A stretch of 43,574 bases of DNA from a virus (lineage: Duplodnaviria; Heunggongvirae; Uroviricota; Caudoviricetes). Under the pieces are notes generated by a model. The model was given only the letters and a program-made list of their open reading frames with translations. It did no database searches and had not been told where the DNA came from. How positions within the stretch are numbered: position 1 is the stretch's first letter; the number at the start of each line of letters is the position of its first letter. The translations under genes and the position numbers were made by a program. Location of the stretch: the IMG/VR virus record IMGVR_UViG_2718217869_000002, positions 1-43,574 of that record. One strand, written 5' to 3'. Below are positions 1,979 to 7,118 of the stretch, piece by piece.

Positions 1979-2102
1979 GAGTGCTATCTCCGAATAGGGA
2001 ATCGAACCTGCAAATCAGGCAATAAAAAACCGCATTGATGCGGCGATGTTATGTCTGGATATATTGAGAAATGAACAGGCCTCATCGAGTGTGAGGCTGT
2101 GG

Positions 2103-2474
2103 TTAGTCATTGCGTAACTCGCTAATTCTTTTGTAAGTCTCTGGTGCTTTGTTTCCGTGTATCTTCATTTCTGACTTCAACAGAGCAACGAGGGAATCCC
2201 ATTCGTTGAGGATGCCTTTGAATGCCGGAACGCGCTTTGCAACCTTGTCGAATGAATCTCTGATTTCTGGAATCTGCTCGACAAGCGCAACGCATCGTCG
2301 GAAATCGGCTGCGTCATGTGGAGCGCCGAAGTGATGACCATAGATATTCTTTTTCAGTCCACATGCGATTGAGGCAAGAGTTGCGCTACTGATGCCGACA
2401 TCGCCAGTCGATTGCCATTTCAAAACCTTCATAGCCAAATCTGACATTTCTTGTCTCCAATAAAAAACCGCCAT
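2103..2474 (-). CDS. Hypothetical phage protein
   Basis: ORF with start overlapping the stop of the upstream ORF (TGATG); alternative start ATG at 2447 with a GGAG RBS; no recognisable family. Confidence 0.5.
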   Translation of the reverse strand: MAVFYWRQEMSDLAMKVLKWQSTGDVGISSATLASIACGLKKNIYGHHFGAPHDAADFRRCVALVEQIPEIRDSFDKVAKRVPAFKGILNEWDSLVALLKSEMKIHGNKAPETYKRISELRND

Positions 2475-2481
2475 CAGGCGG
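2460..2481 (-). terminator. Putative intrinsic terminator or attenuator in the leftward early operon
   Basis: Minus-strand hairpin CCGCC-TGAT-GGCGG followed by TTTTTT; overlaps the stop codon of the 55-aa ORF. Confidence 0.35.
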
Positions 2482-2641
2482 CATGGTGTTCTTTCAGTTC
2501 TTCAATTCGAATATTGGTTACGTCTGCATGCGCTATCTGCGCCCATATCATCCAGTGGTCATAGCAGTCGTTGATGTTCTCTGCTTCGATAACTCTGTTG
2601 AATGGCTCTCCATTCCATTCACCTGTCACCCGGAAGTGCAT
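2474..2641 (-). CDS. Small hypothetical phage protein (55 aa)
   Basis: ORF MHFRVTGEWNGEPFNRVIEAENINDCYDHWMIWAQ...; below the ORF-track cutoff; in operon context. Confidence 0.4.
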   Translation of the reverse strand: MHFRVTGEWNGEPFNRVIEAENINDCYDHWMIWAQIAHADVTNIRIEELKEHHAA

Positions 2642-4481: not shown

Positions 4482-4786
4482 GATTTACTCTCCATGAACT
4501 GGTCAACAGCCATGCTAAGTGATACACCTAACGTCTCGATATGCTGCTGAATATCCTGTAGCGTCTGCGCCTGAGATAACAGGATTTCACGGTTGCATAA
4601 CTCTTTAACCAGATGCTCAAACTTGCTGTAATAACCGATACGACTGAGCGTTTCTTTCCCTGCATTCTCGCCTTCTTTGATAATTCCTCTTTCGCTAAGA
4701 ATCAGGTCGTGTTTGGTTCCGGTAATAACGTATTTTCCGAGGTCGATGTTTAGCTTCATTGTTTTCATTGTTAATTCCTCAGTCAT
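4478..4786 (-). CDS. Hypothetical phage protein
   Basis: 102 aa from ATG at 4786 ([12 protein letters not shown]...), overlapping stop of upstream ORF; longer ORF in track is probably shadow extension. Confidence 0.5.
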
Positions 4787-5072
4787 TACTGATAGCGCCA
4801 TAGCGTGAGCGGTAATTACGCAGGCGCGGGTCAATTTCAGGGAAGTGGGTATATGTGGCTTTGTGGAATGGTCGGATTGATGTCTGGTAAATTCGCTCGC
4901 GTTCTTCTTTCTCTGCAAGCCATATACAATGGCGAAATTCCTTTTCCTCTTTCGTTTCCTGCGGTAGCGACATTATCCGATCGTAGTTTTTTCTGAATTT
5001 ATCCAGCACCTCCGATACGGAATTGCCGGAACAGCGGCGCGGGTCATCCGCACCATACAGAGGCGCTGGCAT
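4779..5072 (-). CDS. Hypothetical phage protein
   Basis: 97-aa ORF in co-directional early-left operon. Confidence 0.5.
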   Translation of the reverse strand: MPAPLYGADDPRRCSGNSVSEVLDKFRKNYDRIMSLPQETKEEKEFRHCIWLAEKEERERIYQTSIRPFHKATYTHFPEIDPRLRNYRSRYGAISND

Positions 5073-5088
5073 GGTTTTCTCCTGTTGA

Positions 5089-5637
5089 TTATTTAGCTAA
5101 CTTTTTCCAGATCGCTGAAACGTATTTGGCTTGGTGAATGGCATCATCAAGCGCGTTGTGGCGAGTTCCTTTGAATGGCATATCTCGCTTAGGGTCGAAT
5201 CCTATTACCTTTCCAAGCTCGACGATTGTTCTTACGTCGCGGTCATTCCACCACTGCCACGGAACTGGCCGCCCTGTCAGCGAATAACTGTTGCGGAGAA
5301 TAACGCAGTCAAATGATGCTCCATTCCCCCAAACCTGAACGAATTTGTGGTTAGCGTTCTTTATGATGAATTCAGATAACCATGAAAGAGCCGTTGAAAG
5401 CTCTTGAGTGTTGCTGGTTAGCGATTTTCTGGCTTCTTCACTCTGTTCCATCCACCATAAAATCGTTGAAGCGTCAGGACGCGCCCGATATCGCATTGAT
5501 GACTCAAGCGAGATATTTACCGAGAACTCTTCTCCTGTTTCTCCGGTATTCGGGTCAAAGAATACCGCCCCAATAGAAATAACTGGCGCGTATGGCCCGT
5601 TGCCCATTGTTTCAAGGTCAACCATTAAGTGATTCAT
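5089..5637 (-). CDS. Phage 3'-5' exonuclease (DnaQ-like/DEDD fold)
   Basis: 182 aa; N-terminal MVDLETMG motif and downstream acidic/His motifs typical of DEDDh exonucleases; adjacent to ssb and annealase genes. Confidence 0.65.
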   Translation of the reverse strand: MNHLMVDLETMGNGPYAPVISIGAVFFDPNTGETGEEFSVNISLESSMRYRARPDASTILWWMEQSEEARKSLTSNTQELSTALSWLSEFIIKNANHKFVQVWGNGASFDCVILRNSYSLTGRPVPWQWWNDRDVRTIVELGKVIGFDPKRDMPFKGTRHNALDDAIHQAKYVSAIWKKLAK

Positions 5638-5645
5638 GTAAGTCC

Positions 5646-6152
5646 TTAAATTGCGTGAATAGCGTGACGAGGGAAGGGGAGAGTTACTGGTGCAAAGGGT
5701 ATATCGTCGTCAAAATCCATCGGAGGTTCGTTGTGTTGTGCTGGTGATGATTGCTGCTGTGGCTTCTGTGATTGCCTGCTGGCTGCTTGTTGTTTGCTGT
5801 CGCCAATGCCGCCAAGCATTTGCATCACGCCATTAATTCCGACATGAACCTCGGTTGTGTAACGGTCTTGCCCTGACTGGTCTTTCCACTTTCTGGTTCT
5901 CAGCATTCCCTCGAAATAAATCTGATCACCTTTTTTCACATACTGCCCCACGACCTCAGCCAGTTTCCCGGATACAGCAACACGATGCCATTCAGTCAAT
6001 TCCTTTTGCTCGCCAGTATTTTTATCTCGCCATTGTTCTGACGTGGCTATTGTCAGGTTAGCGAACGCTGTTCCTGATGGTGAGTATCGAACTTCCGGGT
6101 CTTGTCCTACCCGACCAAGGATAATCACCTTATTTACGCCTCTGCTTGCCAT
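5646..6152 (-). CDS. ssb: Single-stranded DNA-binding protein
   Basis: OB-fold N-terminus highly similar to E. coli SSB, Gln/Pro-rich linker, acidic DFDDDIPF motif; here followed by 15 extra residues. Confidence 0.85.
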
Positions 6153-6860
6153 TTATGCCGCCTGTTTTAGTTCGTTAACTCTGATGTTCATTACCTGAAC
6201 GCATTTAGCCTGCGCATCCTCATTGCCAGCCATTAATTGCCAGTCATGCTGATAACGTTCTATGAGTTTTTTCTTGTCAGTTTCTGTTGATGCATAATCG
6301 CTGAAGTCTTTCAGGATTTGTTCGCAGTCAACCGATGGAGATTTCTGGTTGGTATTTTCTGGTGATGGTTTGTTATCTGATGCTGGGATTGCCCATCCCG
6401 GCAGCGATGGAGGGAGCCAGTAAAATCCTGTTCCATCTTTCAGTTTTGCCCTGTGCCATCCCTGCTTTTTATCGAGAGATGTTTGTGCGAAACCTTCCTC
6501 AAGGTTATACAGATACCGACCGATTCCCCATTGAACGGCAGCACGCTTCATTGCACCGGAACGACCACCTTTGACGGCTTCTACCTGCGTGTTTTCAGCA
6601 GCATCCCATTTGGTTACCCATTCGGAATCAATCTTTATCGATATGCCGCATTCAACGCCGCCGTTGTTGGGAATATCGCGGTATTCATTGCGCCATCCTG
6701 CTTTGCCGCAAACATCGTCCAGGCGCTTCATGATTGCCCGGTTCGTGACATAAGCCAGCACCATAGCCCACACTTTGCCATCGCGTGTTTTACCGCTTTG
6801 CTGTATTCGCCATTCGATATCTTCAGGGCTGAATGGCTCATCGAATTTATTCAAATCCAT
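6153..6860 (-). CDS. Rad52-like single-strand annealing protein (recombinase)
   Basis: 235 aa; motif KRAAVQWGIGRYLY characteristic of Rad52/Sak-type phage annealases; genomic context with ssb and exonuclease. Confidence 0.7.
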   Translation of the reverse strand: MDLNKFDEPFSPEDIEWRIQQSGKTRDGKVWAMVLAYVTNRAIMKRLDDVCGKAGWRNEYRDIPNNGGVECGISIKIDSEWVTKWDAAENTQVEAVKGGRSGAMKRAAVQWGIGRYLYNLEEGFAQTSLDKKQGWHRAKLKDGTGFYWLPPSLPGWAIPASDNKPSPENTNQKSPSVDCEQILKDFSDYASTETDKKKLIERYQHDWQLMAGNEDAQAKCVQVMNIRVNELKQAA

Positions 6861-6947
6861 AATTCACCTCAGAATGGACATGGCCCAAGGAAATAACGCT
6901 GATTTAATACTTCAGTCTTTGCCGCATTTAAAAATACGCGAACACCT

Positions 6948-7118
6948 TCACGATCTCCCTTCTGGCGATACATTAACGCCTGCTGCGTGTACATGCGTCT
7001 CTGTAACTTGCTCTCCTTCACTGTGGTTGCAAGTGACATGAATATCTCCTTCGTTACCGATTAAATCTTTCATCTGACGAATGAATTCTTCGTCTGACCA
7101 GTTATCTGTAAAACTCAT
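6948..7118 (-). CDS. Small hypothetical protein (56 aa)
   Basis: ATG at 7118 overlaps cIII stop (ATGA); position between cIII and recombination genes (kil/gam position in lambda) but no sequence similarity recognised. Confidence 0.4.
   Translation of the reverse strand: MSFTDNWSDEEFIRQMKDLIGNEGDIHVTCNHSEGEQVTETHVHAAGVNVSPEGRS

Follow-up and report, generated by a model that had tools for sequence, protein, structure and literature searches.

The SSB (single-stranded DNA-binding protein) encoded by the ssb gene of the IMG/VR virus record IMGVR_UViG_2718217869_000002 (Caudoviricetes; all 43,574 nt were analysed and are referred to as the window) does not end at its acidic tip DDDIPF but continues in frame for 15 more residues. 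Judged from sequence comparisons, this extension, hereafter the tail, is old, widespread, of nearly fixed length and under purifying selection. The explanation tentatively preferred here, with slightly less than even confidence, is that the tail is a genuine peptide module kept by selection and typical of SSBs of Enterobacterales mobile elements (lambdoid and other prophages, integrative-element-like loci and conjugative plasmids), where it would cap the tip and add a new docking motif.

The window SSB contains the OB-fold domain (the Pfam match spans residues 6–104), the linker and the D-D-D-I-P-F tip, but this tip is not an extreme C-terminus with a free Phe carboxylate: the codon directly after the TTT of Phe153 is GCA, not a stop codon, and 15 residues follow. 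The uninterrupted 3' end of the gene reads GATTTTGACGACGATATACCCTTTGCACCAGTAAC. The extension beyond DDDIPF reported in an earlier note on this DNA is thus present in the ssb frame, and positions 5646–5720 comprise exactly the tip, the extension and the stop codon. An open frame of 15 codons past IPF is expected in about half of random sequences; the extension is nevertheless more than a chance occurrence, because it recurs in independent records and in 100 of the 142 distinct phage, viral or Escherichia coli loci, and because its variation is mostly synonymous.

An identical SSB of 168 residues is encoded by phages mEp235, mEpX2 and HK75, and the ssb genes of the Salmonella phages epsilon34 and g341c (90.5% DNA identity) encode a tail identical to that of the window. 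The same tail is joined to another lineage of the ssb body, only 73–77% identical in DNA, in ECP1, HZ41 and CP-1639. The region is matched by 410 of 5426 complete E. coli genomes, and among the 120 protein clusters (90% identity) best matching the window SSB, 109 have a tail that is exactly 15 residues long. These clusters come from E. coli, Salmonella, several Klebsiella species, Citrobacter, Enterobacter, Kluyvera, Pluralibacter and Phytobacter. Comparison of the 3' ends of related ssb genes, which the earlier note had proposed, therefore reveals a conserved extension and not a recent mutation.

A scan of one genome per species, in which the best 80 SSB loci were inspected, revealed eight more distant SSBs (54–59% identity) with extensions of 15–16 residues and the same layout (Table). 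The genes beside them code for RecT, for AAA_24 (Sak4-like), for ERF with a DnaQ-like exonuclease, or for DUF3577 with a topoisomerase. Tails are also found on plasmids: the SSB of an 86-kb Salmonella plasmid carries APIGLPYPRHTVYCL, and that of a conjugative IncF/MPF_T plasmid, whose ssb adjoins a type IA topoisomerase gene, carries IGHGYGVCRKAIYAIS. A search at 50% identity clustering returned mostly canonical or truncated SSBs and one further tail of this type (P0236). Besides SSB and the endonuclease described below, no protein with the tail was found among the 295 fetched loci and the window. Other rare extensions after the tip, apparently unrelated (APVPFY, SNYELRSVI, RQYQHRQLY, APEFR, AQHMKHTFI and FPAFNPG), were seen in the 50%-identity representatives P0243, P0267, P0293, P0298, P0303 and P0340; some of them may be frameshift artefacts.

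The 41 distinct tail variants tabulated are all 15–16 residues long and share the pattern h-[T/G]-x(7)-[I/V/M]-[H/Y]-x-[I/L]-COOH, which the window tail fits. A hydrophobic residue mostly occupies position 3, T or G is found at position 4 in 39 of the 41, and R/K-H/K is usual at positions 9–10; position 12 admits I, V or M, position 13 H or Y alone, and position 15 I or L. Reading frame and length are kept throughout, with one common exception, a 12-residue Salmonella form (P0001; 165 aa, 588 member sequences) ending in ...PRHAI. This form is what loss of 9 nt between the HAI repeats of ...RHAIHAI would give, and the H-A-I C-terminus is kept. In the window SSB itself the tandem HAI-HAI stands at the end of the tail, and the tail starts with a second [I/L]-P-F-like unit (positions 5691–5708, ATACCCTTT compared with CTCCCCTTC); these repeats hint that the tail may have originated by small duplications of tip-coding DNA.

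Substitutions within the tail are biased to synonymous sites. A haplotype encoding the identical peptide differs from the window tail at seven synonymous and no non-synonymous sites (binomial P about 1e-4, with synonymous sites taken as 27%), and a Klebsiella-type tail differs at six synonymous and three non-synonymous sites (P about 0.016). Among the more diverged comparisons of lambdoid type, five gave a proportion of synonymous differences (pS) of 0.41–0.64 against a non-synonymous proportion (pN) of 0–0.19. Among 75 unique genes, nucleotide diversity is 0.03–0.08 in the tail and about 0.09–0.31 in the OB domain, and the linker is the most variable DNA, at about 0.25–0.56 in most 15-nt windows. 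The tip preceding the tail is conserved as well: in 108 extended SSBs, F147, P152 and F153 are invariant, and D146 and D148–150 are at least 90% conserved.

These data bear on whether the extension could be a neutral accident, that is, a sequencing error, a recent loss of a stop codon or a scar left by deletion of an endonuclease gene. Such an origin is very improbable. A sequencing error at the expected stop, one of the possibilities raised in the earlier note, is contradicted by the same sequence in many independent phage and genome records, and the recent stop-codon loss suggested there does not agree with a lineage-wide, old extension of 15–16 residues under purifying selection. In the 42 distinct loci (phage, viral or E. 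coli) with a canonical end, the stop right after the tip is never directly followed by the tail; a tail, where one of these loci has it, lies at least 450 nt downstream, within the open reading frame of the endonuclease. The earlier note had also allowed for an extension that is universal and functionally neutral in this lineage; it is indeed nearly universal there, but purifying selection speaks against neutrality. Nor was support obtained for a regulated variant: around the tip there is no slippery site, no alternative stop giving IPF-COOH and no terminator, and reading the +1 and -1 frames at CCC TTT GCA by eye revealed no canonical end. No Rfam match occurs in the window, where an RNA element at 5646–5720 was looked for, and neither a promoter-like site nor a nearby terminator was found in 4700–7000. 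An overlapping gene at 5646–5720 was considered and rejected, the open reading frames in the other frames being short and unsupported.

The deletion-scar variant of this explanation arises from a peculiar arrangement of the ssb locus in related phages. In 30 of the 142 distinct loci, ssb is split by an insertion of roughly 480 bp containing a free-standing gene for a putative homing endonuclease, known as gene 26 (gp26) in phage Sf6 and assigned to PHROG 2340. In Sf6, Bas106 and Huey the SSB ends canonically at IPF-stop and is followed by an endonuclease reading frame of 155–159 residues, whose product ends in ...KPIYPDE(E/A) followed by 14 tail residues, so that the same 14–15 residues terminate the endonuclease in all three phages; in loci L172 and L173 it likewise ends in the tail. 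DNA alignment of alleles with and without the gene places the insertion point exactly between TTT (Phe) and GCA (Ala). The stop codon of the IPF-ending alleles belongs to the insertion; the canonical tip of some relatives is thus present because the endonuclease gene was inserted at the F|A junction. Roughly 27 nt upstream of the insertion are recoded, the tip being NFDDSDIPF or NFDDEIPF, as would be expected of a homing endonuclease sparing its own allele from cleavage. The window lacks this endonuclease gene, and its ssb frame is uninterrupted with the unrecoded tip MDFDDDIPF.

The shared C-terminus, the CP-1639 ssb (the endonuclease-linked tip MNFDDEIPF followed by the tail, which looks like endonuclease loss or a recombinant) and the deletion fusions of this region found in databases could all be taken as signs of a scar. 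However, homologues of the endonuclease outside this context terminate a short way past ...NKPIY, their short ends being unrelated, the PHROG 2340 profile reaches residue 143 of 159 and stops there, and in the AlphaFold2 model of the endonuclease pLDDT is above 96 to about residue 140 and then falls to 45, with the remainder disordered. Tail-less homologues are also located directly after ssb in Cronobacter-like and other prophages, preceded by the altered tips DFDDSDIPF, DFDDQDIPF or NFDDDQDIPF. The tail is therefore regarded as native to ssb, because other members of the endonuclease family lack it, and its interpretation as a deletion scar was rejected; tailed SSBs moreover occur in taxa and elements without such an endonuclease nearby. 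The pattern suggests a family of mobile endonucleases that has specialised in the highly conserved tip-coding DNA of ssb, and in tail-bearing lineages the endonuclease appears to have taken over the remaining 15 codons and the stop.

No Pfam match was obtained for the endonuclease, and a PDB fold search with its model returned nothing significant, the best match being the beta-beta-alpha-Me nuclease Hpy99I (E 0.06). We infer putative nuclease activity and homing from the annotation, a Cys/His motif and this weak fold match; the name 'HNH' for the Sf6-type endonuclease is an annotation-level label. In Klebsiella phage phiKp_30 (L010, 2020–2223) only a decayed remnant of the gene is present, its start and last 60 nt flanking unrelated filler, and the tail persists in mutated form (...PRHAAYAI). 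In-frame database fusions of SSB with the endonuclease (P0131, P0134) and of the endonuclease with a 3'-5' exonuclease (P0144, P0173, P0180, P0183) point to repeated deletions in the ssb–endonuclease–exonuclease interval of E. coli prophages. Together with the CP-1639 ssb, the remnant and the fusions can be read as signs of a cycle of endonuclease gain, decay and loss.

A different endonuclease (Pfam HNH_3, E 9e-13) takes the same place behind a canonical ssb in the Salmonella phages ES18 (L011, 2358–2879) and 103203_sal5 (L012, 2488–2880). No tail is left downstream of this gene in ES18-like phages, and in 103203_sal5 a frameshift disrupts ssb itself. Endonuclease genes of at least two unrelated kinds thus appear to share the ssb 3' end as a hot spot. 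A decayed prophage of E. coli EC931 (L015, 1501–1559) retains, beside abc2 and a truncated holin gene, an isolated stretch of 59 nt from the tip and tail of ssb, the remainder of which has been deleted.

Another explanation is constraint mainly at the DNA level, in which the 45 nt would serve as a recombination boundary between gene modules, as the homing site and flank of the endonuclease, and as carrier of the downstream ribosome-binding site, with the peptide a tolerated by-product. Consistent with this, the tail is an island of low diversity in the gene set described above, homology between phages breaks exactly at the stop codon, with the exonuclease gene or abc2 coming next, the endonuclease inserts at the left edge of the 45 nt, and the TAAGGA motif overlaps the downstream ribosome-binding site. 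In disagreement with it, distant tails without DNA similarity have the same length and key residues, substitutions are strongly biased to synonymous sites, and an in-frame tail would not be needed in Tatumella, Xenorhabdus or plasmids lacking this endonuclease or these neighbours. On balance, such a constraint is an improbable explanation of the tail.

At the protein level, an AlphaFold2 monomer model of the window SSB, run with 108 extended SSBs, has pLDDT of 72–88 over residues 11–110 of the OB fold, with strands at E8–115 (beta-barrel), and about 30 over residues 115–168, so that the tail is predicted to be disordered. This predicted disorder looks like that of a short linear motif. Folding of the tail onto the OB domain was rejected, since the monomer model contains no contact between them. 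The family model TIGR00621 aligns residues 4–153 to its whole length and ends at IPF; matches to SSB structures in PDB (E 2e-59) cover residues 1–115 and reach no further than residue 153. The extension is covered by no curated NCBIfam or Pfam SSB model and by no PDB SSB chain, alignments stopping by Phe153, and tailed proteins are at present named plain 'single-stranded DNA-binding protein', with models that stop at IPF. Within the searchable library no paper has the tail sequence, and nothing was found on SSB tips describing an extension after the tip; the Sf6 GenBank record remarks only on '14 contiguous amino acids identical to ... SSB'. A post-tip peptide on SSBs of mobile elements is apparently undescribed so far.

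An intramolecular role, in which the basic and hydrophobic residues of the tail, placed beside the acidic tip, alter contacts between the tip and the OB fold, cooperativity between tetramers or condensates on single-stranded DNA, is quite improbable. The tip and linker of E. coli SSB tune cooperativity and phase separation, the tail is always fused directly to an intact tip, and it is independent of the neighbouring genes. However, the tail does not dock on the OB fold in the monomer model, both of the divergent ssb body lineages are joined to identical tail DNA, and the tail is also present on the unrelated endonuclease.

The preferred explanation, capping of the tip combined with a new docking motif, starts from what is known of the SSB interaction hub. 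ExoI, RecQ, chi and PriA, like RecO, clamp the carboxylate of the tip with a basic residue. In RecO, Arg132 anchors the carboxyl end of the SSB C-terminal peptide, and partners use the terminal Phe together with its free carboxyl (PMC3152348), in line with the earlier note, which had named the terminal IPF with its free carboxylate as the docking site. In a tailed SSB, Phe153 is no longer C-terminal and its alpha-carboxylate would be lost, and host partners would be expected to grip the tip less or differently. The SSB of the element could then be partly uncoupled from the host SSB interactome (RecO, ExoI, RecQ, chi and PriA), and the avoidance or subversion of host SSB-interacting proteins proposed in the earlier note would be plausible. 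Capping alone would not conserve the sequence of the tail, which must itself be read by something, and the appended motif most likely provides a new docking surface for a factor common to all these hosts or for SSB itself. An element-specific recombinase is an unlikely partner, because four families of annealing proteins adjoin tailed ssb genes and some tailed loci have no recognised annealing-protein gene upstream; a phage-specific partner was likewise rejected by gene neighbourhood, the neighbours varying among Rad52-like, RecT, ERF, AAA_24 and DUF3577 with topoisomerase. In P22-like and lambdoid phages of E. coli and Salmonella, where the tip-and-tail DNA serves as target and flank, the mobile PHROG 2340 endonuclease gene inserts exactly at F|A, recodes the tip, restores an SSB ending at IPF-stop and takes over the tail in frame. 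A bolder and rather doubtful form of this proposal treats the tail as a tip modifier that rewires the hub: host nucleases, helicases and RecO, whose recruitment depends on the carboxylate, would be kept from the single-stranded DNA of the element, another conserved host factor would be recruited, and the endonuclease would toggle phage SSBs between the modified and the canonical state.

Several observations weigh against the proposed capping and docking role. The DDDIPF tip of tailed SSBs is as conserved as in canonical SSBs, which would be odd if it were simply disabled, and might mean that it still acts as an internal motif or is exposed by proteolysis. The endonuclease-bearing phages Sf6, Huey and Bas106 are viable with a tail-less SSB, and the tail is therefore dispensable for growth. 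The capping effect is derived by analogy from structures of other SSB–partner complexes. Part of the apparent conservation of the tail in E. coli and Salmonella phages is due to recent spread by recombination or gene conversion, because the tail DNA is an island of low diversity and homology breaks at the stop codon; constraint on the protein is shown mainly by the more diverged variants. The homology of lambdoid-type tails with those of plasmid and integrative-element type is based on equal length and a few common positions only. Finally, host-type SSBs lacked the tail, 70 of the 80 best loci of the species scan ending at the tip, which counts in favour of the proposal; these loci, however, were called host-type from the sequence end.

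The main rival is a C-terminal turnover tag, marking SSB or the endonuclease for a host AAA+ protease such as ClpXP, Lon or FtsH and keeping two potentially toxic DNA-binding proteins short-lived. We consider it unlikely, but several features of the tail agree with it. In E. coli a protein is destabilised by a non-polar C-terminus, and the signal by which ClpX recognises MuA ends in RRKKAI. The tail is portable on two unrelated proteins and predicted to be disordered on both, it is most tightly constrained at its four C-terminal residues, [I/V/M]-[H/Y]-x-[I/L]-COOH, before which R/K-H/K stands, the 12-residue Salmonella variant still ends in ...PRHAI, and the tail is present whatever the recombinase, as expected if a host machine is the reader. 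The C-terminal residues are [H/Y]-[A/V/S/L/C]-[I/L], to which some tails add S or C. The ssrA-like ClpX tag, a C-terminal ...L-A-A-COOH, was rejected, none of the 41 tails ending in Ala-Ala, but this concerns that class of degrons alone. The likeness to known degrons is compositional only, and the conserved N-terminal half of the tail (P-V/I-T/G-L-P/Q-F/Y) would not be explained unless an adaptor binds there. This half was also compared with the beta-sliding-clamp motif, whose consensus, QL[SD]LF or QLxLxL, has Gln at position 1 and a conserved Leu at position 4. PVTLPF of the tail resembles QLSLPL of Hda; the candidate was rejected, as Q never occurs at the equivalent first position of the tails, which is P, G, Y or L, and distant tails have K, A or Y in place of the Leu.

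The chromosomal SSB of E. coli (PF00436, TIGR00621; PDB 1eqq, 4mz9) has the same OB fold, closely similar in sequence to that of the window protein, the same Gln/Pro-rich linker and the same acidic tip. It differs in that its tip is the C-terminus, with the carboxyl end held by partners, while 15 conserved residues follow in the window SSB. The SSB of phage HK620 is likewise encoded beside an annealing-protein gene, and its C-terminal residues decide its interaction with the Sak4 annealase (PMC5928155). It is a distant homologue whose functional tip is its last six residues, NDYPPF, and it has no conserved peptide after an intact DDDIPF; unlike the HK620 SSB/Sak4 pair, the present tail goes with no single annealase family. 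The product of Sf6 gene 26 has the same 14-residue end, which lies outside the core of the PHROG 2340 family.

Secretion signals of type IV secretion substrates are usually C-terminal. Like tailed SSBs, those of the F and pED208 plasmids are mobile-element paralogues expressed alongside the host SSB, and transfer of such leading-region SSBs by way of the type IV secretion system has been reported (reviewed in PMC8744291). A transfer signal is not a general explanation, because prophage SSBs share the tail without a secretion system. The phage SSB-like protein Bas52_0087, with an FDDDIPF tip, triggers DRT10 defence together with host SbcB (ExoI) (bioRxiv 10.64898/2026.04.29.721553). It comprises two OB folds with a motif like the E. 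coli C-terminal tip in its C-terminal region, and no extension after the tip is described. By analogy, this case provides a possible reason for a mobile element to mask the tip.

The minus-strand gene order in the window, Rad52/Erf-like, ssb, Rv2179c-like exonuclease and abc2, is that of a recombination operon (Table). Half of the first 25 kb of the window matches Sf6- and Huey-like phages; by these comparisons the element carrying ssb is a lambdoid, Sf6/Huey-like prophage and not the host ssb locus. The start MPAPLYGAD... of the abc2-like gene is also found in the annotated abc2 of HK75, ECP1 and mEp235. The exonuclease gene is absent in HK75, ECP1 and HZ41, where abc2 directly follows ssb, and the ssb stop is a mosaic boundary, phage homology ending exactly there before the exonuclease gene or abc2 of the relatives. 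The stop codon of the Rad52-like gene lies directly against the ATG of ssb (window 6150–6155), and the ssb TAA overlaps an AAGGA ribosome-binding site (TAAGGA) located 8 nt before the exonuclease ATG (window 5638–5648). These tight junctions suggest translational coupling along the operon. In loci of the integrative-element type, the DUF3577 proteins encoded upstream of extended SSBs end in ...YAENSF (L020, 1432–1935; L023, 254–724; L029, 1470–1940), an acidic, aromatic end that resembles an SSB tip.

Table. The ssb region of the window, endonuclease genes of related phages and extensions of distant SSBs (coordinates are those of the window or of the locus named)
Feature	Coordinates	Strand	Basis or remark
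ssb gene including stop	5646..6152	(-)	168 aa; open reading frame list, Pfam PF00436, E 1.6e-36
OB-fold DNA-binding and oligomerisation domain, residues 1–115	5808..6152	(-)	AlphaFold2 and PDB SSB matches
Gln/Pro-rich disordered linker, residues 116–144	5721..5807	(-)	pLDDT about 30
Canonical acidic tip MDFDDDIPF, residues 145–153, internal here	5694..5720	(-)	sequence
15-residue extension (tail), residues 154–168	5649..5693	(-)	conserved peptide, predicted disordered
TAA stop of ssb	5646..5648	(-)	sequence ...GCAATTTAAGGACTTACATG
Empty endonuclease insertion site, Phe153 TTT / Ala154 GCA	5693..5694	(-)	DNA alignment of alleles
Rad52/Erf-like single-strand annealing protein gene	6153..6860	(-)	Pfam PF04098, E 5e-26
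Rv2179c-like 3'-5' exonuclease gene, directly downstream of ssb	5089..5637	(-)	Pfam PF16473, E 5e-73
abc2-like anti-RecBCD gene	4779..5072	(-)	open reading frame start MPAPLYGAD...
Endonuclease gene, Sf6 (L004)	2032–2511		
Endonuclease gene, Huey (L008)	2026–2493		
Endonuclease gene, Bas106 (L009)	2032–2511		
Tatumella extension			APIGLQHPAHFIYSI
Mixta extension			AYIGLQYPSHAIHSI
Xenorhabdus extension			APIGKQYPNHTIYVI
Providencia extension			AGLGASFGKHTIHAIC
Brenneria extension			LGFGYGVCRKAIYAIS
Chimaeribacter extension			IGFGYDCSRVAIHAL
Enterobacter extension			IGFGYGVPKSAIHAL
Scandinavium extension			LGHGYGVSRKAIYAIS

The SSB tip is a textbook hub for many genome-maintenance proteins, its free terminal Phe being taken as essential, and a large class of SSBs of mobile elements retain the tip yet bury it beneath a conserved peptide. 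The endonuclease-split alleles with a canonical tip provide a natural control for the effect of the tail. The finding is relevant to recombineering, in which portability depends on how annealing protein and SSB are paired, and to plasmid establishment, SOS control and the sensing of phage SSBs by defence systems. If the hub is indeed rewired, the altered tip could also avoid SOS induction or defence systems that sense SSB tips. Overall, the tail suggests that mobile elements deliberately change what their own SSB recruits, or how long it persists.

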